Below the pieces are notes generated by a model, which did not search any database, had not been told where the DNA came from, and saw nothing but the letters and a program-made list of their open reading frames with translations. From a virus (Duplodnaviria; Heunggongvirae; Uroviricota; Caudoviricetes), in the IMG/VR virus record IMGVR_UViG_3300028361_000018: a DNA stretch of 64,000 bases; one strand, given 5' to 3'. The translations under genes and the position numbers were made by a program. Positions 7,571 through 62,409 of the stretch are shown here, piece by piece (position 1 is the first letter of the stretch; each line of letters begins with the position of its first letter).

Positions 7571-8626
7571 ATGACAATTGATAAAAACGTTTTTAACACA
7601 GAAAAAACAGACTACGAAAAGCCTAAGCTGTTGCTTGGAGAACAGGAATCTGGTTTGTTTGATATCTTAAATACAATCCCAAATAATGCACATTATCTTA
7701 ATAGGTATATTAGATTTATCTATTATTGTGTTAATTACAACAAATATAATGTTAAGTATGAATTGCATCATATATGCCCAAAATCAAAAAATATGTTTCC
7801 TGAATATACCAATTTAAAAATAAACCCTTGGAATGGTGCAGAATTGAGTCTTAGGCAGCATTTTATAGCCCACCATATATTATGGAAAACGTATGGTGGG
7901 GATATGACAATAGCCTTCAAAGGGATGAACAATTTTGGGAGATATGAAAATAGATTAAATTCCAAATCATACCAATCTCTCGTTGTGCAGGGCAGGCGAA
8001 CACAATCTAAAAAGATGAAAATTTATTATGAGAATAATCCGTGGAGAATAGAGGAAATTAGAATTTCTCGAACAGCAGAGAATAACCCACTATTCGGGAA
8101 ACCTATATCAGAAGCTCACAAACAAAAGCTATTGGATGGTGGAAATTTATGGAGAGCAAATCCAGAGAATGTTATAAAATTTAAAATAGAAGCTAGAAAG
8201 CGTTGTAGTATACCAACCAATTGTCCTTTTTATGGAAAAAAGCATTCTGATGAAACTAGAAAACTTCAAAGCGAAAATCATTCAGGAGTTAATAATCCGT
8301 TTTACGGAAAAAGCCATTCAGAGGAAACAAAAAATCTAATAAGTGAAAAGGCCAAAGGTGAAGGGAATGGGATGTTTGGAAAGATGGGGGCTGAAAATCC
8401 GAATTATGGACAGAAGCGATCTAAAGAGTACAAAGATAACATAACAGGAAGCAAAAATCCTAGAGCAAAGTCAGTCGAAATAAATAACACACTATATGGT
8501 TGTATAAAAGATGCTGCTAAAAGGTTAAATTTATGCTATTCTTCGCTTTCCCAAAATTTAAAATACAATGACACAAGAAGACTAGAAAAAATGGGAATAT
8601 ATCAGTTTAAATTATTTACTAACTAA
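7571..8626 (+). CDS. HNH homing endonuclease with NUMOD-like repeats (MobE-like, inserted between nrdA and nrdB)
   Basis: YELHHICPKSKN...N...L...HF.AHH HNH core, then repeated NPLFGK.ISE.HK / NPFYGK.HSEETK motifs. Intergenic position matches T4 mobE. Confidence 0.7.
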   Translation: MTIDKNVFNTEKTDYEKPKLLLGEQESGLFDILNTIPNNAHYLNRYIRFIYYCVNYNKYNVKYELHHICPKSKNMFPEYTNLKINPWNGAELSLRQHFIAHHILWKTYGGDMTIAFKGMNNFGRYENRLNSKSYQSLVVQGRRTQSKKMKIYYENNPWRIEEIRISRTAENNPLFGKPISEAHKQKLLDGGNLWRANPENVIKFKIEARKRCSIPTNCPFYGKKHSDETRKLQSENHSGVNNPFYGKSHSEETKNLISEKAKGEGNGMFGKMGAENPNYGQKRSKEYKDNITGSKNPRAKSVEINNTLYGCIKDAAKRLNLCYSSLSQNLKYNDTRRLEKMGIYQFKLFTN

Positions 8627-13983: not shown

Positions 13984-14340
13984 ATGAACACAGGCCAAGT
14001 ATATTTTTATTACTATAAACAAAAGTTAGCCGACTGTGTATTCGACTATAAACAAAAGTTAGCCGACTATGTATTCGAACAACAGCGACGCAATAACATC
14101 AAGGAACACGGATACTGCCCGCTACATCTTGTGACCAAGTACAATGTGGCTATTGAAGATGCTGGTCGATATCGTTGGCTACGTGACAGCGGGCACCTTG
14201 ATGCGTTTTGGAGCGTTGATGGTACAGAAGTCCGCTGTGATAACATCGACGTCGAGATTGAAGACGCAATGGCCGAACACGCATTGCATAATATGATGGC
14301 AGACTTAGAAAAAGAAGAGCATGCTCATGACAAAGAGTGA
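13984..14340 (+). CDS. hypothetical protein with internal duplicated YKQKLADxVF segment
   Basis: 118 aa. DNA-level tandem duplication (ctataaacaaaagttagccgact) near the 5' end. Confidence 0.4.
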   Translation: MNTGQVYFYYYKQKLADCVFDYKQKLADYVFEQQRRNNIKEHGYCPLHLVTKYNVAIEDAGRYRWLRDSGHLDAFWSVDGTEVRCDNIDVEIEDAMAEHALHNMMADLEKEEHAHDKE

Positions 14341-14682
14341 ATGCACACTGTAAGAATAAATAGTAATAATGGTAGTAAACTAGCTTAGGAAAACACGGGA
14401 ACACGCCGGGGCAGTACCGGCCAGCTCCACCATAAGCGCACTGCTAGTGTCTGCATACACTGCTAGCGTGCTTTTGATGGGGCTGTACTAGATTCGACTT
14501 TCGGAGCTATTACTAATGTTGGCTACTCGGTAGATGACGGCCGTAAACGCATAAAACTAGGAAATGACAAAACATCATTTACCACAGAACTAACAGTAGA
14601 AGGTCTTTTCGAAGATCAACTGCTAGCTGCCTAAACCGTAGCAAGTTCGGGGATATCGCTATCCTGCAACAGAAAAGTGATA

Positions 14683-14706
14683 AGAGCGCTTCGGCGCTCT
14701 TTTTTA
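14683..14706 (+). terminator. intrinsic terminator
   Basis: AGAGCGC-TTCG-GCGCTCT perfect 7-bp GC-rich hairpin followed by TTTTT. Lies at the 3' end of a 430-bp ORF-free region. Confidence 0.7.
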
Positions 14707-35772: not shown

Positions 35773-36624
35773 ATGAGATTAGACGCCCTTTCAGCAATCG
35801 ACTTTTACAAAGCAGATCACAGACGCCAGTACCCAGAAGGTACTGAGCTAGTCTACAGCAACTTTACACCACGCAGTATGCGCCTGTACAAAGGCAACGC
35901 TACTGAGACTGTAGTGTTCGGACTACAGGGATTCTGCAAATGGTTCCTCATTGATATGTGGAACGAAACTTTCTTCAACAAGCCAAAGGCAGAAGTTGTA
36001 GCCAAGTATCAAAGAAGACTTGACTCTAGCTTAGGTGACGGCGCTGTGCCAATGGATCACGTCGAAGCATTACACGACTTGGGCTATTTGCCTTTAGAGA
36101 TTAAAGGTCTGCCAGAAGGCGTAAGTGTGCCGGAAAAAGTAGCTGTTCTTACAGTCAAGAATACAGTACCAGAGTTTTACTGGCTGGTTAACTACATTGA
36201 AAGCGTGATGAGCTCAGAGCTGTGGAAGCCAAGCGTAGTTGCTACGCTCGCAAAAGAGTATCGCGAAATACTTACAAAGTATGCTAATCTAACTGGCGCA
36301 TCACTCGATGGCGTTCCTATTCAGTGTCACGACTTTAGCTTCCGGGGAATGAGTGGACTACACGATTCCGCAAGCTCAGGGGCCGGGCACTTGCTGTCCT
36401 TTGTGGGCACAGACGGTGTTCCATCAATTGACTATTTAGAAGAGTACTACAACGCAGATCCAGCTAAAGAAATGATTGGGTGTAGCATTCCTGCAACCGA
36501 ACATTCGGTCATGAGCTGTAACGTAGGAAACTTATCTAAGTTAATCGGCGAGCAGCTGGAAGAAAATCCCAACCTAAGTCTCGAAGACGCGCACCGACGT
36601 GTTCTTCAGATAGCCAAGGGTTAG
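35773..36624 (+). CDS. nadV: nicotinamide phosphoribosyltransferase (NAMPT/NadV), N-terminal fragment
   Basis: 283 aa. DFYKADHRRQYP, SFRGMS, GHLLSFVGTDGV...IPATEHSVMS align with the N-terminal ~330 residues of NAMPT (FKGTDTV...VPAAEHST). The ORF then runs into unrelated sequence and overlaps the antisense HNH gene. Confidence 0.75.
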   Translation: MRLDALSAIDFYKADHRRQYPEGTELVYSNFTPRSMRLYKGNATETVVFGLQGFCKWFLIDMWNETFFNKPKAEVVAKYQRRLDSSLGDGAVPMDHVEALHDLGYLPLEIKGLPEGVSVPEKVAVLTVKNTVPEFYWLVNYIESVMSSELWKPSVVATLAKEYREILTKYANLTGASLDGVPIQCHDFSFRGMSGLHDSASSGAGHLLSFVGTDGVPSIDYLEEYYNADPAKEMIGCSIPATEHSVMSCNVGNLSKLIGEQLEENPNLSLEDAHRRVLQIAKG

Positions 36625-37261
36625 TTAACATTTGCTTAGTAACAATCCTGTCAGGATTTGAGCAAAAGTTGCGCACTGTTCCGGCGGTATAAGGAGTGCT
36701 TCGGGCTGCTTGCGGAGCAGACCCGAAAGTTCCTTTAGGGGTTACATAGTGCCCCTTAAAGTTAGCATTCCTTTCAGGATGCGCAAGTTTTGTATTTCTT
36801 ATCTTGTCGACAACGTCAGGTGTTCTTGGTATGTTATATAAGTGAGATTCTTTACCACCTTTATGAGGGTTGTTAGTTTTAATAAGTTGTCTAATAATAT
36901 TAATGTGCTCAGGCGATAGTGTTTTTCCAGAATGTAAGTTAGAATTAGCAATAGCAAATTGCTCTTTAGCAGTCTGAAATGTTCGAGAAGTAATTTTGTA
37001 GTATCGTTGAACATCACCGTTAAGTTGATTGTTCATTGCCCAGAAAGCAAATTTTAGTTTATCAGATTCTGGATATATCTTACAAAGCATCCTGTGACAT
37101 ATAAAATGTACACGAGCAGACAAGTATACTAAATTAGTAGAACAGTTGGTTCCGCCGATCGACTTAGGAACAATATGGTGCCTTTCAGAATAAACGTCTT
37201 TTGGCTTGACACGTTGCCCAAACTGTGCTATTATAGCGTTATAAGTTTTTATGTAATTCAT
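36536..37261 (-). CDS. HNH homing endonuclease inserted in the NAMPT gene (antisense orientation)
   Basis: 241 aa, - strand. ERHHIVPKSIGGTNCSTNLVYLSARVHFICH is an HNH core shared with the 7571 and 49150 ORFs. Lies exactly in the gap between the two NAMPT fragments. Confidence 0.7.
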   Translation of the reverse strand: MNYIKTYNAIIAQFGQRVKPKDVYSERHHIVPKSIGGTNCSTNLVYLSARVHFICHRMLCKIYPESDKLKFAFWAMNNQLNGDVQRYYKITSRTFQTAKEQFAIANSNLHSGKTLSPEHINIIRQLIKTNNPHKGGKESHLYNIPRTPDVVDKIRNTKLAHPERNANFKGHYVTPKGTFGSAPQAARSTPYTAGTVRNFCSNPDRIVTKQMLTNPWLSEEHVGARLRDLGWDFLPAARRLT

Positions 37262-37306
37262 TATTTTACACTCCGTTATGTGTATTTATACAAAAAAGGA
37301 AATTTT

Positions 37307-38116
37307 ATGTCGTATACCGAAAAAGAAATCATGAACTACTGCGAGCAGGAACTGTTTCGGCACTTGGTCGAAGACCTGTATCCAACAGGGCTTGTATCTA
37401 TTGTTAGTGACACGTGGGACTTTTGGACTGTGGTTACTGAGTATATTCCTGCGCTCAAAGACGTTATTATGGCTCGCCAACCAAACGCCATTGGCCTTAA
37501 CAAGGTAGTGTTGCGTCCAGACAGCGGAGACCCTGTAAAGATCATCACAGGCTACACTGAAGACGAATATTACATCGAAGAAGACGGTGAGCTCATTAGC
37601 TACAAGGACGGTATCACACTGTCTCCTGCAGAAGTCAAAGGCGCTATCGAATGCCTGTGGGACACTTTTGGTGGTACGCTAACCGACTGTGGTTATAGAG
37701 AATTAGACGAGCATATTGGCTTAATCTATGGCGATAGCATTACGCTAGAACGCGCACACGCAATTCTACGCAGACTGGCAGACAAAGGCTTTGCTAGCAG
37801 CAACGTTGTTCTTGGAGTGGGGTCATACACTTACCAGCACAACACACGCGACAGCATGGGGTTTGCAATGAAGGCAACCTATGGTGAGGTCAACGGAGTA
37901 GGACGTGAAATCTTTAAAGACCCAGCAACAGACAGCGGCACAAAGAAGAGTGCTAAAGGTTTGTTACGTGTTGATCTAGTAGACGGAGAATACGTAATGC
38001 AAGACCAAGTAACGTGGGCTGAAGAAGCAGGCGGTGAGCTAAAGACTGTGTTTAAGGACAGCAAGCTCTACAACCAAACCAGCTTGGGTGAGATCAGGCA
38101 GCGTATACAGGGTTAA
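37307..38116 (+). CDS. nadV: nicotinamide phosphoribosyltransferase (NAMPT/NadV), C-terminal fragment
   Basis: Track ORF 37175-38116. ATG 37307 with AAGGA RBS. TEKEIMNYCEQ...VSIVSDTWD...LRPDSGDP...KGLLRV align with NAMPT residues ~330-490 (HEKDAFEH...VSVVSDSYD...IRPDSGNP...KGRL). Confidence 0.75.
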   Translation: MSYTEKEIMNYCEQELFRHLVEDLYPTGLVSIVSDTWDFWTVVTEYIPALKDVIMARQPNAIGLNKVVLRPDSGDPVKIITGYTEDEYYIEEDGELISYKDGITLSPAEVKGAIECLWDTFGGTLTDCGYRELDEHIGLIYGDSITLERAHAILRRLADKGFASSNVVLGVGSYTYQHNTRDSMGFAMKATYGEVNGVGREIFKDPATDSGTKKSAKGLLRVDLVDGEYVMQDQVTWAEEAGGELKTVFKDSKLYNQTSLGEIRQRIQG

Positions 38117-48633: not shown

Positions 48634-48844
48634 CAAACTTTAAAGTAAAACACACTAAGACGTGGATGTCACTCCAGACGTGGGGAAGACAGGTTCGAGA
48701 CCTGTAATGGTAAATCCTGGTTTCGAAACCAGGTAGTGTGTTTTACTTTAAAGTTTATAGTAAAGCATACTAAGGCATGACAGACACTTTTAACGTGTTT
48801 GACTAGGTCCTACACCCAATAGTATGCTTTACTATAAAGTTTAT

Positions 48845-48935
48845 AGTAGATTGGCTGAGTGATCTAAGGCGTTCCGCTGCTAACGGAAAAGTTCACATTG
48901 TGGGCTCGAAGGTTTGAATCCTTCATCTACTGCCA
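48845..48935 (+). tRNA. tRNA-Ser (anticodon GCU), type II
   Basis: Acceptor AGTAGAT/ATCTACT + G + CCA. Anticodon arm TTCCG-CTGCTAA-CGGAA. Long variable arm. T-arm GAAGG-TTTGAAT-CCTTC. Confidence 0.7.
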
Positions 48936-49149: not shown

Positions 49150-49917
49150 ATGCCTCAGGTACAGGGTACGGATTGGTCTCCAAAACCAGTAAGCGGGGTT
49201 CGCAAAATGATAAATAGTCGTATGAACTATAACAAACATTATGCGACATTGATTGAACGAGCAAAAACACGAGTATTTGACGGTTACACTGAGAAACATC
49301 ATATTGTTCCTAGATGCTTAGGCGGCACAGATGACAGAGAGAATATAGTAGCATTAACTCCTGAAGAGCACTATGTAGCACATCAGTTACTAGTTAAGAT
49401 GCACCCAAAGGAACATAAGTTGGTATACGCTGCTAATATGATGACTGTTAGTAGTAGAAAGAATTTGCGTAGTAATAAACAGTACGGATGGATAAAGAAA
49501 CGTTACATTAGCGAGTGTAGAAAACGAAAAGGAAGTGAAAACTCGTCGTACGGGAAGCCCTGGTATTATAATCCTGAGACTTTAGAAAACGGGAAGTTTC
49601 TTAAAGAAAATGTTCCAATAGGCTGGATTAAAGGGAGAAAATCAACACAGAAGCATTGTACTGGTTGTCTGGTTAAAATTACTTCACAGCATGCAAAATA
49701 TTGTCAAGGATGCCTTACTAAATTACAGCTAAGTCGTGTAACAAAAAACGAATTAGAATTTTTGAAAAGAAAAGACAAGTTTATTAGCCTAATAGAAGAA
49801 GGTTATGCCTTCTCGACAGCACTCGACAAAATGGGATATGGCAATTCATATTCGTTAAAGTCCGGGGTAGGCAAGTGGGCTAAAGAAGTTTTATATGCGT
49901 CGGGTACTGGGTACTGA
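49150..49917 (+). CDS. HNH homing endonuclease
   Basis: 255 aa. TEKHHIVPRCLGGTDDRENIVALTPEEHYVAHQLL HNH core. Flanked by ~30-bp imperfect direct repeats (49160-49192 and 49900-49932). Confidence 0.65.
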   Translation: MPQVQGTDWSPKPVSGVRKMINSRMNYNKHYATLIERAKTRVFDGYTEKHHIVPRCLGGTDDRENIVALTPEEHYVAHQLLVKMHPKEHKLVYAANMMTVSSRKNLRSNKQYGWIKKRYISECRKRKGSENSSYGKPWYYNPETLENGKFLKENVPIGWIKGRKSTQKHCTGCLVKITSQHAKYCQGCLTKLQLSRVTKNELEFLKRKDKFISLIEEGYAFSTALDKMGYGNSYSLKSGVGKWAKEVLYASGTGY

Positions 49918-51030: not shown

Positions 51031-51684
51031 TTGTATAAATACAGTATGAACTATACTATATACAAAGTTACAAATAAGATGAACGGCAAGATCTATATCG
51101 GATCTCATAAGACCCCTAATCTTAATGACGGCTATATGGGCTCAGGTAAGTATTTGAAGCGAGCATTAGAAAAACACGGAATTGATAATTTTGTGAAAGA
51201 AATATTGTTTATTTTTGATACTCCTGAGCTAATGTACGCAAAAGAAGCAGAATTAGTAAATGAAGAATTTTTGACAGAAGCTAACACTTATAATTTAAAA
51301 GTAGGTGGATTTGGTGGATGGGACTATGTTAACAAAAACAATTCTTCGCATTCAAAAGAACATATGAATAAAATGTGTAAAGCTAGAATATCAAAGTATC
51401 CAAACGGTACTTTTTACGGCAGAAGTCATACAGAAGAGACCAACAAACGCATTAGCACTTCCTTAGCAGCATTGGCCCTTAGAACTTTTTTAGGAAAAAA
51501 ACATACTGACGCAACTAAACAACTAATTAGTGAAAAGGCTAAAATTCATAGTAAAGGAAAACGAAATTCGCAGTTTGGTACGATGTGGATTACAAACGAA
51601 GTAGAATCAAAGAAGATTAAGAAGACTGAACTTATACCAGAAGGGTACAGAAGAGGCCGAGTAGTAAACAAGACGTTACAGTAA
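51031..51684 (+). CDS. GIY-YIG homing endonuclease (Seg/I-TevI-like)
   Basis: 217 aa. YTIYKVTNKMNGKIYIGSHKT...YMGSG...NLKVGGFGG GIY-YIG core with a C-terminal NUMOD-like basic region. Paralogous to the 54414 and 55360 ORFs. Confidence 0.7.
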   Translation: MYKYSMNYTIYKVTNKMNGKIYIGSHKTPNLNDGYMGSGKYLKRALEKHGIDNFVKEILFIFDTPELMYAKEAELVNEEFLTEANTYNLKVGGFGGWDYVNKNNSSHSKEHMNKMCKARISKYPNGTFYGRSHTEETNKRISTSLAALALRTFLGKKHTDATKQLISEKAKIHSKGKRNSQFGTMWITNEVESKKIKKTELIPEGYRRGRVVNKTLQ

Positions 51685-54413: not shown

Positions 54414-55064
54414 ATGCTATACACACTATACAAGATAACGAATATTATTAACAATAAGATATACGTAGGAGTCCATAAGACTCACGATATCAATGATGAC
54501 TATATGGGATCAGGTAAGATCCTAAAGCTATCAATAAAGAAAAATGGAATTGAAAACTTCACTAAAGAAATATTAGAAGTTTACGACAACCCAGAAGATA
54601 TGTTCTCTGCTGAAGCAAAGATAGTTAACGAAGAATTTATTAAAGATAAAGATAACTATAATTTGAAAGAAGGTGGTCAAGGTGGGTTTGATTGGATTAA
54701 CGAAAATGTTGATCGTAGTCTTGTAGACTATAAACCGCATATTGGTTCAAAAGTTTTTGTTGATAAATGGAAAAATGATCCTGTCTTCCGCGCAGCGCAA
54801 CTGTCACGTATGAAGGAGTTCAGTAGACTTGGAGTGGAAGCTCATAAGCTATTATACCCAGAAGGAGTATGGAAAGGGAAATTCCATAATGAAGAATCAA
54901 AAAAGAAAATAGGTAAAGCAAATAGTATTCACCAAACTGGTAAAGGTAATTCTCAGTTTGGTACAAGATGGATTCATAATTTAGAATTAAAGAAATCTAA
55001 AAAAGTTAATAAAGAAGAACCTCTACCTGAAGGATGGTTAGAAGGTAGAAAAATAAAGTTTTAG
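54414..55064 (+). CDS. GIY-YIG homing endonuclease
   Basis: 216 aa. LYTLYKITNIINNKIYVGVHKT...YMGSG...NLKEGGQGG. Paralog of the 51031 ORF. Confidence 0.7.
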   Translation: MLYTLYKITNIINNKIYVGVHKTHDINDDYMGSGKILKLSIKKNGIENFTKEILEVYDNPEDMFSAEAKIVNEEFIKDKDNYNLKEGGQGGFDWINENVDRSLVDYKPHIGSKVFVDKWKNDPVFRAAQLSRMKEFSRLGVEAHKLLYPEGVWKGKFHNEESKKKIGKANSIHQTGKGNSQFGTRWIHNLELKKSKKVNKEEPLPEGWLEGRKIKF

Positions 55065-55359: not shown

Positions 55360-56016
55360 GTGTCTTCATTGCTAAATAATTGTATGAAACATTATACAGT
55401 ATACAAGACAACAAATATAATTAACAGAAAATATTACATCGGTACACACGTTACTAATAACCCAACTGATTCATATTTAGGTTCAGGAACACGCTTAGCT
55501 AAATCTATCAAAAAGTACGGAAAAGAGAGCTTTTATAAAGAAATTCTGTTCGACTGCACTAGTGAAGAAGAAATGTTTAGAAAAGAAAACGAGCTAGTTA
55601 ATGAAACGGTCTTGAAAGACAAGCAGTGCCTTAACTTAATTGTTGGTGGGAAAGGTGGATTTTCCTACATTAATAAAAGCGGTATAGCTAAATTTAAAGG
55701 AAGGAAACATACGCAAGCGTCTATTAAGAAGATGCTAGCAACAAAAAGAGATAACGGAACTTGGTGTCCAACAGACGAGTGCCGAGAAGAAAGAGCCGAA
55801 GCAAATCGTATAAGAGCAAAAAACCCTGCTAGAAACGCAGCAATATCTAAGACAGTGTCGGGAAGAATAAAAACCGAAGAACATAAAAAAAAGATTGCCG
55901 AAAGTCTGAGAGGCAAGAAACAGAACAGAGTACAATGTCCTTACTGTAAAAGAGTAGGCGGCGAACAAGCATTTAAGCGTTATCATTTCGATAACTGTAA
56001 AAATTTGCGGATCTAG
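55360..56016 (+). CDS. GIY-YIG homing endonuclease
   Basis: 218 aa. YTVYKTTNIINRKYYIGTHVT...YLGSG...NLIVGGKGG. C-terminal basic/Cys region. Its stop overlaps the 5' end of tRNA-Gly. Confidence 0.7.
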   Translation: MSSLLNNCMKHYTVYKTTNIINRKYYIGTHVTNNPTDSYLGSGTRLAKSIKKYGKESFYKEILFDCTSEEEMFRKENELVNETVLKDKQCLNLIVGGKGGFSYINKSGIAKFKGRKHTQASIKKMLATKRDNGTWCPTDECREERAEANRIRAKNPARNAAISKTVSGRIKTEEHKKKIAESLRGKKQNRVQCPYCKRVGGEQAFKRYHFDNCKNLRI

Positions 56017-59829: not shown

Positions 59830-60726
59830 ATGGGATGCTGGAATAAAACATGTTCATTGACAAACCTTCCAATCTACCACGGCGACGCAGTGTACGTCTT
59901 TGCATTAGAGAAGAAGGCAACATACGATCAGTGCTATGCTACAGGGCACTATGCACCGGTTCTGATACCGTTCGAAGGTGTTTATAATGACTACGGCGGA
60001 AGCGATGAGAATAGCGGAGTGGGGCTAACGTATGTGCTAGGCGCAGTTAGGGAAAACTTAATAGAAATGGAAATAGAAGTGGGAGAGAACCAGCGCCACG
60101 ACGTTGCTGTTACTCGCAGCTCTTTTGGAGAGGAACAGTTTTTTGAAAGTGTTCGCGAACAGCGTTTAATTATTGAAAATAAGTTTGGCAAAGAGTCCTA
60201 TATTGACTTTGCAATGATGCGCAAAGACTGCGTGGACGCAATTCTTAATAAGTGGCAAATTGAAGACTGCAAATATAACCATGAGTCTAATGAGGTAAAC
60301 TACTTTAAATACGGTTACAATGACCTTGTTGAGGAAGCAACTGATTACATCCTGGCAATAAAAGACCTTGTTGAAAAGAATGACGAAATAGGATTCATGC
60401 TTATAAACAACATGGCCGAATACCCAGTGTGCAGCAAGCTGGCGAAGACGCTAAACTTTAACGAGCACCGATTTAGTGGAATGTTACGAGGCCAAGGAAT
60501 TGTTCGTGCACTAGTTGAAGCAGGTGAGATCGAACAAGCAGAAGCGTTCATCAAAGAATACCTCAAAGGAGCTATGCTTAACCTATTCTTTGATGAAACG
60601 CGCAAGCAATGGCTACCCGGAGGACACGAAGGTAGCCAAGGACAAGAATACGAGCCTTACGAATTGCTACTACAAGTGACTCAAGAAACTATCAACAAAA
60701 GAAAGACAGAAATGGAAGAATGGTAG
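59830..60726 (+). CDS. hypothetical protein (298 aa)
   Basis: ORF track. Confidence 0.4.
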   Translation: MGCWNKTCSLTNLPIYHGDAVYVFALEKKATYDQCYATGHYAPVLIPFEGVYNDYGGSDENSGVGLTYVLGAVRENLIEMEIEVGENQRHDVAVTRSSFGEEQFFESVREQRLIIENKFGKESYIDFAMMRKDCVDAILNKWQIEDCKYNHESNEVNYFKYGYNDLVEEATDYILAIKDLVEKNDEIGFMLINNMAEYPVCSKLAKTLNFNEHRFSGMLRGQGIVRALVEAGEIEQAEAFIKEYLKGAMLNLFFDETRKQWLPGGHEGSQGQEYEPYELLLQVTQETINKRKTEMEEW

Positions 60727-60754
60727 TTGACAAACACTACAAAGGTGCTATACT
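60726..60754 (+). promoter_or_regulatory. sigma70-like promoter TTGACA-N17-TATACT driving an ORF-free structured region
   Basis: TTGACA 60726-60731, TATACT 60749-60754. Confidence 0.45.
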
Positions 60755-60770
60755 AATAAAGTAAAGATTT

Positions 60771-61428
60771 ACACTGTGCTGGAATAGGTATACAGGGGTG
60801 CGGAATAAGCCAATATGGATAGGCGGTGAAATATTAATAATACACCGTTTTGCGCTCAAGACTTGTATAACTGAGTCAGGCGAGAACTACCCGTTTCATA
60901 ACAGCGCAACGTAATTGAAACATCCGGGTTCGATCCCCGGCAGTGTAAATAAATAATTCGGTCTGCTCATTACAATTAAAATGAGCACACGGTACTCTTA
61001 GCGCAAGCTAAGGGGCGCAGTATAACTAAACAGTAGAGCATACTGTGAAGAATCCTTATTCGGGCGAAGAAGCGACGGCTTCTAGGATCGGAGGTACACA
61101 AGTTGAACGCCAAGTGTTACGTAGTGATCTTTGGTATTGCTTGAACGCCACAGCTGGGACCTGCTAGGCAACCGAACTAGCTACTGCGTTAATGTCCTTT
61201 GCCTACGGGTAGAGGACATCTTAAAGCACTTTGACACAGAGTGCTTTAAGATGTGACAGATGCGTAGACTGATACGCAGTGCTTGAGCTTAGCGGCCAAG
61301 CATGAGACGAGGCGCTGACCCTGGGCAGATTTGAACAAACAGGGGAACCGATATTGGTCGCGAACTGTGTCGGGTTGCTATGCTGGAGATCAGTACCAGT
61401 TGTCACACTACTAATTCACGAGGTTAAT
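60771..61428 (+). ncRNA. large structured non-coding region (tRNA-like 3' module + multiple long hairpins); identity unknown
   Basis: No ORF >61 aa on either strand for ~650 nt, downstream of a promoter. TACACTG (60771) pairs with CAGTGTA just after a canonical T-arm CCGGG-TTCGATC-CCCGG (~60925-60946). Further perfect hairpins include ACATCTTAAAGCACT-TTGACACAG-AGTGCTTTAAGATGT (~61218-61256). Confidence 0.4.
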
Positions 61429-61782
61429 ATGATAACTAATTACTTGTTTCTAAATCGTGAGCTGCTTGATGATGTTTATTCCGCTCATGGGTCAACCCTT
61501 GTTGTTGTACAAAATCGAGGAGATGCTGTAAACTTCTTTAATGAATTGCTGATGTGCCATAAAATGGACACCGAGTCAGCTATGTGCTCTCACTCTGGGT
61601 TGTGGATATCATGCAAGGTCAGCAAGACCACAGTAAGGTCGATACGTGATCAATCATTTCGTTCGTCAATTCGCGGAGCTCAGTTCACACAGGTATTTAC
61701 AGTGGGCAAAATGTACGAAGAAGACAACGAACTAATAGTAGCTAGTCTTCTGTGGCAGCCAAGGCAATCGCCAGAAGAATAG
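61429..61782 (+). CDS. hypothetical protein
   Basis: Track ORF 61354-61782. ATG 61429 after GAGGT RBS. Confidence 0.35.
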   Translation: MITNYLFLNRELLDDVYSAHGSTLVVVQNRGDAVNFFNELLMCHKMDTESAMCSHSGLWISCKVSKTTVRSIRDQSFRSSIRGAQFTQVFTVGKMYEEDNELIVASLLWQPRQSPEE

Positions 61783-62107: not shown

Positions 62108-62409
62108 AAATTTAGAATAGAGACGAAAAAAGAAAGAAATGCCGGAAAGCAGGTTCGATTCCTGTGGTGGTCAAGATGGCTGCTGAGTTGGACTCTATAA
62201 AAAATTCCGGAAGTCCTAGGTAATTGTCTCGAGGCTTTTACCTAGGGCGGTACTAATTATGCAGGCGGAGAGCGAACGGCGGTCCTGAGTCTAAACTATG
62301 AGTATACCGGTAAATGCTCGTAGGAATAAGACTTAACAAAGATTATAGATCTTTGTGAATAGGTTAGAATCCTGTCGTCTGCTCCTAATTCAACACAAAA
62401 GGTAATAAA

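Follow-up and report, generated by a model that had tools for sequence, protein, structure and literature searches.

A candidate new family of large structured RNAs with a tRNA-like domain in the tRNA island of uncultivated phages related to T4-like cyanophages

What occupies some 700 nucleotides (nt) of a phage tRNA island that hold no substantial open reading frame (ORF) and lie behind a promoter of their own? The question is raised by the tailed-phage record IMGVR_UViG_3300028361_000018 (Caudoviricetes), of which we analysed a stretch of 64,000 nt, hereafter the window. Between positions 60727 and 61428, behind a predicted promoter, the longest ORF has 61 amino acids (aa) and lies on the - strand, and the next real gene begins at ATG 61429; the ORF list thus bears out an earlier remark that no ORF longer than 61 aa precedes that position. 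The remark belongs to a preliminary description, made from the letters alone, which left the region unassigned as a large structured non-coding RNA (ncRNA) that has a promoter of its own and includes a tRNA-like module, an assessment now supported by conservation, covariation and negative Rfam searches. We conclude that the region is a real, selected structured RNA of ~650 nt (~650-700 nt across the family), encoded on the + strand, and is neither a gene nor debris. A conserved, folded RNA without a catalogued match looks like a new class of large phage RNA, and we put at roughly 70% the probability that this is a new family, located in a tRNA island, matching no catalogued family and functioning at the RNA level.

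Homologous contigs were reached via the two flanking proteins, as was the window's own contig (IMG/VR 3300012031_000005, also listed as Ga0136561_1000006). Copies of the element were found on at least 12 metagenomic phage contigs in five sequence lineages, made up of close relatives of the window (L028-L032, L037, L041 and L044) and the distant lineages L025/L050, L046-48, L049 and L051. Relative to the distant lineages, the tRNA-like domain described below retains 76-80% nt identity and a central domain 69-75%, against 64-65% nt (42-47% aa) identity for the flanking genes; both core domains are better conserved than the genes around them. The preliminary description had named missing conservation in homologous phages as a reason to discard the region, and no such absence was seen; the comparative alignment that it had called for gave abundant compensatory base-pair changes across the five lineages. 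Outside this set the element was not detected: it had no match in cultured phages (50,697 phage records) and no blastn match in E. coli genomes, and an invariant 18-mer had no real copy in 185,579 species genomes. It is missing from L033 and L034, two contigs that encode a 58%-identical homologue of the product of the upstream 298-aa gene, from the loci of 21 more distant homologues of that gene, and from Synechococcus phage B23, the gene's closest cultured carrier. As sampled by these searches, the family is confined to one clade of large phages that are uncultivated and have T4-like cyanophages as relatives.

A protein-coding or frameshifted gene, the second ground for dismissal named earlier, is ruled out by stop codons in every frame (8-17 per frame over all six frames in the window and 6-18 in five homologues), by length differences between homologues (43 nt and ~115 nt) that are not multiples of 3, and by compensatory pairing. 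The + strand has a minimum free energy (MFE) of -225.5 kcal/mol (z = -4.5 against dinucleotide shuffles), which together with the covariation in five lineages justifies calling the region highly structured. The GC enrichment noticed earlier is also real, at 0.46-0.515 over 60900-61399 compared with 0.39-0.44 on both flanks, and the hairpins listed at the time, including TGCGTA-GACTGA-TACGCA, were all found in the sequence. For the whole element, RNAalifold on five sequences of close homologues predicts 184 pairs, 35 of them compensatory. Conserved G-U pairs in the tRNA-like and central domains place the element on the + strand, to which all its features given below belong. Three further candidate features were not retained. 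A 13-aa mini-ORF behind a conserved GGAGGU is not kept in L025 or L049; binding of an anti-Shine-Dalgarno sequence by this GGAGGU is not universal, because the motif reads GCAGGU in L025 and L050; and an inter-domain kissing interaction of ACGUAA (60909-14) with UUACGU (61117-22) is unsupported, since the second partner is not conserved in L030 and L046.

The sigma-70-type promoter TTGACA-N16-TGcTATACT (60727-60754) matches the consensus at 11 of 12 positions and has a TG extension, its boxes being TTGACA at 60727-60732 and TATACT at 60749-60754. The promoter first described is therefore present and conserved, but its spacer is 16 nt, not 17, and its TTGACA starts at 60727. It is found at the same relative position in the distant homologues L025 and L046 and is aligned in all homologues. 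The + strand of the window has nine exact TTGACA-N15-18-TATACT sites against a chance expectation of 0.07, so that on sequence statistics they form a real promoter class of this phage. The transcript probably starts at ~60761-63, as judged from the predicted promoter.

At its 5' end, and not at its 3' end as the title of the preliminary description had it, the element carries an expanded, pseudoknotted tRNA-like domain (60767-60950), which is supported by covariation, by ARAGORN with introns allowed and by a covariance model of the domain (R1) that finds it in 11 contigs. The ends of the domain pair in an acceptor-like helix of 10 bp (60767-60776 with 60941-60950) with five covarying pairs, including pairs 8-10. 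The 7-bp helix TACACTG/CAGTGTA proposed earlier is present and supported by covariation but forms part of this longer helix, and covariation past the seventh pair shows that this is not the free acceptor end of a tRNA. Next comes a D-like hairpin with a 4-bp stem and a conserved GG (60777-90), followed by a 5-bp helix at the position of the anticodon stem (60796-800 with 60888-92), which encloses a branched insert of ~87 nt with hairpins at 60821-50 and 60860-77. A 6-bp hairpin with the 17-nt loop UAACAGCGCAACGUAAU stands at the position of the variable arm (60893-921), and the T arm CCGGG-TTCGATC-CCCGG (60924-40) has two covarying stem pairs; both had been pointed out before, and covariation supports both. 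The 17-nt loop is invariant over the five lineages except for two variable positions, and the T-loop pattern GGUUCRA is present in 10 of 11 sequences, the other (L028) having GGUUUGA. A 6-bp pseudoknot is predicted between 60851-56 (UGCGCU) and 60903-08 (AGCGCA) in the hairpin loop, and a covarying pair supports it: pair 88-147 of the 11-sequence alignment is UA in eight sequences and CG in three. It was preferred to the RNAalifold helix CGCU/GGCG (columns 90-93 / 118-121), which leaves one pair unpaired in 4 of the 11 sequences. The long stem GUAUACA/UGUAUA of the MFE structure is not kept in L025 and was therefore dropped for the model that combines RNAalifold helices with the pseudoknot.

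Of the cells in this domain, 97.5% are paired, compared with 37-42% in slid controls; compensatory changes are seen at 18 of its 51 pairs. None of 500 shuffles reached the observed paired fraction, compensatory-change counts or covariation score (four of five measures). How far, then, is the domain a tRNA? A T loop of the GTTCRANY type and the GG of the D region are present, and as the acceptor/T-arm stack, the T loop and the D-like hairpin are all retained, an elbow between T loop and D-like hairpin is plausible. An anticodon arm (5-bp stem and 7-nt loop) and a tRNA model score are both missing, the branched insert taking the place of the arm; instead of a 7-bp acceptor with a free discriminator-CCA end there is the 10-bp helix, after which AAUAAA follows and no CCA is encoded. 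Without an anticodon arm and a CCA end, the domain presumably cannot decode. ARAGORN makes no call at the module under default settings. Once introns are allowed, it calls a tRNA-like gene (60769-60949; 91-nt insert), read as tRNA-Met(cat), and at the 80% threshold it makes a tmRNA-like call whose tag, ESGENYPFHNSAT, carries the label 'not identified'. The string U-CAU-A is invariant in 11 of 11 sequences, and the CA of its CAU is paired in a covarying helix.

A linker with two hairpins (60951-61014) separates this domain from the next. Its sequence differs between sub-lineages, and in L046 and L051 it is missing, the conserved domains lying ~7 nt apart. The hairpin TGCTCATT...ATGAGCA that had been singled out earlier is present (60964-60987) but is not conserved, being part of this lineage-variable linker that two lineages lack; a GCAA-tetraloop hairpin (60995-61014) is predicted by RNAalifold with two compensatory pairs. 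The central domain of ~175 nt (61015-61189) has an 8-bp closing helix, GCGCAGUA/UACUGCGU, and seven more helices, for which RNAalifold predicts 48 pairs, 26 of them compensatory. Here 96.7% of cells are paired compared with 29-47% in slid controls, and some strands are near-invariant, for example CCUUAUUCGG and GACGCC..AGCUGGG. A second covariance model (R2), of the central domain, matches only beside the tRNA-like domain and once per contig. The two core domains together have 44 compensatory pairs.

The 3' part is built differently from lineage to lineage. In that of the window, four peripheral hairpins (61194-217, 61216-254, 61261-278 and 61279-303) follow the central domain; they are partly present in L025 and absent from L046, L049 and L051. 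The longest of them is the 15-bp stem placed earlier at ~61218-61256: it is indeed a conserved long stem, but it maps to 61216-61254 and has 18-nt arms with one mismatch. It forms the base of a longer hairpin in most homologues, with 43 extra apical nt in L031, L032, L028, L037 and L025, and in L041 ~115 extra nt come after it. A lineage-specific multi-helix module (61304-61404), predicted by RNAalifold on close homologues, ends the element. In the cross-lineage alignment, the other lineages have instead a 9-bp stem around UUUACGUUAAAAGCGGGAUUGAGAUAAAGA and then a GCCGUU/AACGGC hairpin, and L046, L049 and L051 have ~190 further nt in the 3' part. This architecture of a tRNA mimic, a new core and swappable 3' modules is the element's own.

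Does any catalogued RNA family account for the element? The Infernal/Rfam scan that the preliminary description had proposed was run with Rfam 15 at E<=10 on the whole region, on the module alone, on the 3' 490 nt alone and on the L046 homologue, and gave no relevant match (tRNA, tmRNA, GOLLD, ROOL, introns, RNase P, T-box or riboswitch). The sole matches were chance-level ones to microRNA, small nucleolar RNA, small RNA and CRISPR-repeat families, and to tRNA with E = 8.3 in L046. The negative result is meaningful because in L050 the same settings reach both a 23S-like piece of 25 nt (E = 0.055) and a tRNA-like element with a weak signal (E = 0.11). Scanned at Rfam gathering thresholds, the whole window shows only tRNAs and a permuted tmRNA. 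Two families had been rejected before, and both rejections hold. tmRNA has no model match and no default ARAGORN call here; position 3:70 is C-G and not the G3-U70 pair, and the tag frame is not conserved, beginning with TAG in L025, with a tag ESGENYPFHNSAT that ends in -SAT and not in hydrophobic residues. Neither a group I nor a group II intron model (catalytic core P3-P8/P7 or domains V-VI) matches at E<=10, and the flanks are complete separate genes rather than exons. Mimicry of ribosomal RNA (rRNA) by the main element was likewise discarded, with no rRNA model match and no blastn match to E. coli genomes; the search method does detect the 23S-like piece in L050.

Among known RNAs, ROOL (RF03087) and GOLLD (RF01998) come closest by context and tmRNA by topology. 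ROOL and GOLLD are RNA-only nanocages that form multimeric cages, and we know of no protein partner or function for either. Like the element, they are ~580-800+ nt long with dozens of conserved helices, are encoded by phages (ROOL and GOLLD also by prophages), typically in or beside tRNA islands, and combine a conserved part with a variable one. The element itself is a large multi-helix phage RNA of ~650 nt beside the genes of a 12-tRNA island (48.5-62.1 kb; default ARAGORN). GOLLD can hold a tRNA in its linker, and one member was first found downstream of a Met-tRNA (PMC12286853); the setting in a phage tRNA island and the scale of the element match both families (PMC12286853). The order in GOLLD is the reverse of the element's conserved 5' and variable 3' parts, and the tRNA-shaped part of the element is no ordinary tRNA gene but an expanded, non-canonical mimic that forms part of the RNA itself. 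The ROOL and GOLLD covariance models show no sequence or structure match at E<=10 to the whole region, its 3' 490 nt or the L046 homologue.

tmRNA (SsrA) shares with the element paired ends in an acceptor-like helix beside a T arm and a large pseudoknot-containing insert that replaces the anticodon arm, and phages can carry it, as the window does at 14317-14683. In contrast to tmRNA, the element has an insert of only ~87 nt and an end helix extended to 10 bp; it lacks G3-U70, an encoded CCA and a conserved, hydrophobic-ended tag frame; and it has an extra hairpin between insert and T arm as well as ~470 nt of structured RNA after the module. The T4 stable RNAs 'species 1 and 2' (rnaC, rnaD) are non-tRNA transcripts of ~120-140 nt within the T4 tRNA cluster, with which they are co-transcribed; to our knowledge their function is still unknown. 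They too lie among tRNA genes, and the phage of the window is related to T4-like cyanophages, but they are far shorter, and the element had no match in the search of phage records. The bacterial Y RNA-like RNA YrlA and other tRNA mimics resemble the element in having a conserved T-arm/D-arm elbow and acceptor-like stack within a larger ncRNA without an anticodon arm. Both termini of YrlA are located in its Ro-binding stem, which replaces the anticodon stem, whereas the ends of the element lie in the acceptor-like helix; no Rfam match links the two, and no Ro/TROVE or RtcB gene was found among 45 window ORFs scanned. A T-box leader is likewise a long structured RNA directly 5' of a gene and tied to tRNA shape, but it binds tRNA where the element resembles one, and neither a T-box model match nor a conserved terminator/antiterminator switch was found in the element.

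In every lineage a gene of 110-117 aa lies directly 3' of the element, a fixed position 5' of one gene family such as a cis-acting leader would occupy. The upstream neighbour varies: most contigs have the 298-aa gene there, but L041 has a hydrolase gene and L051 a TauD gene. In the window the downstream gene has 117 aa (MITNYLFLNRELL-type; 61429-61782, + strand) and a ribosome-binding site (RBS), GAGG, at 61420-23, for which RNAalifold predicts only a 3-bp contact with the element. The first 14 residues of the product (MITNYLFLNRELLD; window 61429-61470) are invariant in 11 of 11 homologues, and because synonymous sites vary within the stretch that encodes them, the constraint acts on the N-terminal peptide, not on the RNA. 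The family has a total of 29 invariant columns, with a mean column identity of 45%, and a confidently predicted but function-less RecA-like fold with no more specific clue. A protein identical to the 117-aa product is present on a 170-kb contig. Only in L046, L049 and L051 does the alignment show, directly 5' of the RBS, a covarying, terminator-like hairpin of 9 bp and then CAUUUU.

What might such an RNA do? Because the acceptor/T-arm surface that tRNA enzymes and the ribosome read is retained and decoding is not, we favour a trans-acting RNA that would use tRNA mimicry. The RNA would be made from its own promoter, heading a transcript that can run on into the downstream gene, and would itself be the functional product, acting in trans. 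Factors that recognise tRNA shape (RNase P and further tRNA-processing enzymes, for instance, or the ribosome) could read its tRNA-shaped domain; recognition might lead to processing and stabilisation of the RNA, or direct it to the apparatus of translation or of tRNA metabolism, with the central domain serving as effector or assembly surface. Several points weigh against this reading. The likeness to ROOL and GOLLD rests on genomic setting and scale. The element and the downstream gene were never found apart, no terminator was detected between them in the window, and the conserved 5' and variable 3' layout resembles an aptamer with its expression platform, all of which would also fit a cis-acting leader. 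The family is small and phylogenetically narrow, so that a small number of evolutionary events may account for many of the compensatory changes; the pseudoknot is backed by a single covarying pair; and we infer both the RNA-level function and every step of the mechanism.

The main rival, which we consider unlikely, takes up just these points and sees a cis-regulatory 5' leader of the 117-aa gene, working in the manner of a riboswitch or T box: its conserved 5' domains would sense a ligand or a macromolecule, and its variable 3' modules would be the expression platform that governs read-through or access of the ribosome. It would explain why the same gene family follows in all five lineages even where the upstream neighbour differs, why promoter, RNA and RBS succeed one another without a detected terminator in the window, why the 5' part is conserved and the 3' part variable, and what the hairpin and CAUUUU are doing right before the RBS of L046, L049 and L051. 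Yet 650-700 nt with >180 predicted pairs are far beyond known leaders, and for a 117-aa gene at that; ~300 nt of shuffled hairpin modules are atypical of an expression platform, no conserved terminator/antiterminator or RBS-sequestering pairing was found beyond the predicted 3-bp contact, and no T-box or riboswitch model matches. The strict linkage of RNA and gene could also mean that the RNA and the small protein are a functional pair, either a ribonucleoprotein or a protein with a neutralising or guiding RNA, as in type III toxin-antitoxin systems. The conserved N-terminus and invariant columns of the protein, as well as its predicted RecA-like fold, are compatible with such a pair, but the RNA lacks repeat units like those of type III antitoxins and linkage by itself does not demonstrate interaction; we regard this explanation as improbable.

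Still less probable is a functional tRNA (Met, CAU) or tmRNA-like molecule in the 5' module, with an insert that is either cut out or tolerated and with unrelated spacer making up the rest. The two relaxed ARAGORN calls and the invariant U-CAU-A speak for it. The closing helix that covaries past its seventh pair and the absence of an encoded CCA speak against it, the more so as most genuine tRNAs of the window end 3 nt past their Rfam match, which fits genes that encode CCA. What would have to be the intron ranks with the best-conserved parts and is located on the 5' side of the putative anticodon, whose CA is paired; the window element has no tRNA or tmRNA model match at E<=10, and for L046 the tRNA model yields only E = 8.3. 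A tmRNA-like role is contradicted by the C-G pair at 3:70, the stop that opens the tag frame in L025 and the -SAT end, and the window already has a real permuted tmRNA; moreover, the module is always accompanied by the conserved 175-nt domain downstream of it. A last explanation would see nothing functional, either decayed tRNA genes with intergenic filler or a frameshifted or unrecognised protein gene. Other degenerate tRNA-like pieces do occur in the island, but conservation above that of the neighbouring genes, the 44 compensatory pairs of the core domains, the conserved promoter, stops in all frames of all homologues and indels that are not multiples of 3 effectively refute it.

The main element has company in its own island. 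The stretch at 62108-62400, after tRNA-Cys, in which T-arm-like motifs had been noticed, contains a separate, conserved, expanded tRNA-like element (62261-62392, + strand), 1.3 kb downstream of the main one, with the T arm ATAGG-TTAGAAT-CCTGT and a 7-bp acceptor. The pairing of GCAGGCG (62261) with CGTCTGC (62386) proposed for this stretch is that acceptor, and it covaries, reading GCGGGAG/CTCCCGC and GCGGGTG/CGCCCGC in relatives. The second element is conserved in L037, L050, L046 and L051; in relatives its T loop is the canonical TTCAAAT. It ends in TCCT in the window and in TCCA in L046 and L051, which also have an extra insert of ~60 nt. ARAGORN makes no default call on it, and in L050 the Rfam tRNA model yields only the E = 0.11 mentioned above. 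Between tRNA-Cys and this second element, L050 (1467-1715) and L051 (5009-5245) have a closed domain of ~245 nt, of which the window has no copy. Over 36 nt, the 5' part of the domain, GGATGTTGGCTTAGAAGCAGCCATCGTCTAAAGAGTAGC, shares 94% identity with E. coli 23S rRNA, and it matches positions 1098-1122 of the large-subunit rRNA model, which we take to be the L11-binding or GTPase-associated-centre region. The domain may be a phage-encoded mimic of an rRNA fragment.

Together, the second tRNA-like element and the 23S-like domain suggest that this clade collects mimics of translation-machinery RNAs. Taken further, and only as a tentative idea that we think rather doubtful in full, these phages may possess a whole set of RNAs that mimic components of the translation machinery. 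The main element, a tRNA mimic fused to a new 175-nt effector domain, would then dock ribosomes or host factors that sense tRNA, such as processing enzymes or the stress and defence sensors of uncharged or cleaved tRNA, and reprogramme or shield translation in the infected cell, possibly acting as a multimeric RNA-only assembly like ROOL and GOLLD.

Very few classes of large structured bacterial or phage RNA are known, among them GOLLD, ROOL, OLE, HEARO and raiA, and each prompted structural and functional studies. A further class from a phage tRNA island would give a second angle on the role of such RNAs. Its tRNA mimicry suggests partners that can be tested, namely RNase P, the CCA-adding enzyme, the ribosome and tRNA-sensing defence systems, and the covariation-backed structure and the two covariance models offer a starting point for structural, binding and database work.

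The window and its relatives contain other RNA features. The permuted two-piece tmRNA gene (14317-14683, + strand) scores 87.8 bits with the tmRNA_permuted model and 68.6 bits with alpha_tmRNA, and is not reported by ARAGORN under default settings. Between the two tRNA-Ser genes lies an element of ~103 nt (48646-48748, + strand) with a 13-bp closing helix, GTAAAACACACTA/TAGTGTGTTTTAC, a T-arm-like hairpin, GACAGG-TTCGAGA-CCTGT, a perfect palindrome, CCTGGTTTCGAAACCAGG, and a weak match to the covariance model of the tRNA-like domain (E = 0.037); a 17-bp inverted repeat, TATAGTAAAGCATACTA/TAGTATGCTTTACTATA (48757-48845, + strand), is found between the same two genes. Upstream of the 298-aa gene, three contigs have gene-free gaps of 1.3-1.9 kb (L032:1339-2638, L033:2076-3963 and L034:1906-3256), in which neither R1 nor R2 finds a match.

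As to the phage itself, the window encodes auxiliary genes of cyanophage type, namely heme oxygenase, bilin reductase and an AOX/PTOX-family oxidase, together with PRPP synthetase, ribonucleotide reductase and ClpP, and an RNA-repair nucleotidyltransferase of the RlaP type. Among cultured phages, the closest homologues of the 298-aa neighbour come from Synechococcus phages B3 and B23 (Kyanoviridae). Free-standing genes of homing-endonuclease type (NUMOD3, HNH and GIY-YIG/SegE-like) are located at 7571-8626, 49150-49917, 51031-51684, 54414-55064 and 55360-56016; one separates the two subunit genes of ribonucleotide reductase, and the rest are interspersed with the tRNA genes. The NAMPT/NAPRTase gene (35773-38116) is apparently split into ORFs 35773-36624 and 37175-38116, and the 241-aa opposite-strand ORF between the two parts (36536-37261) may mark an intervening element.

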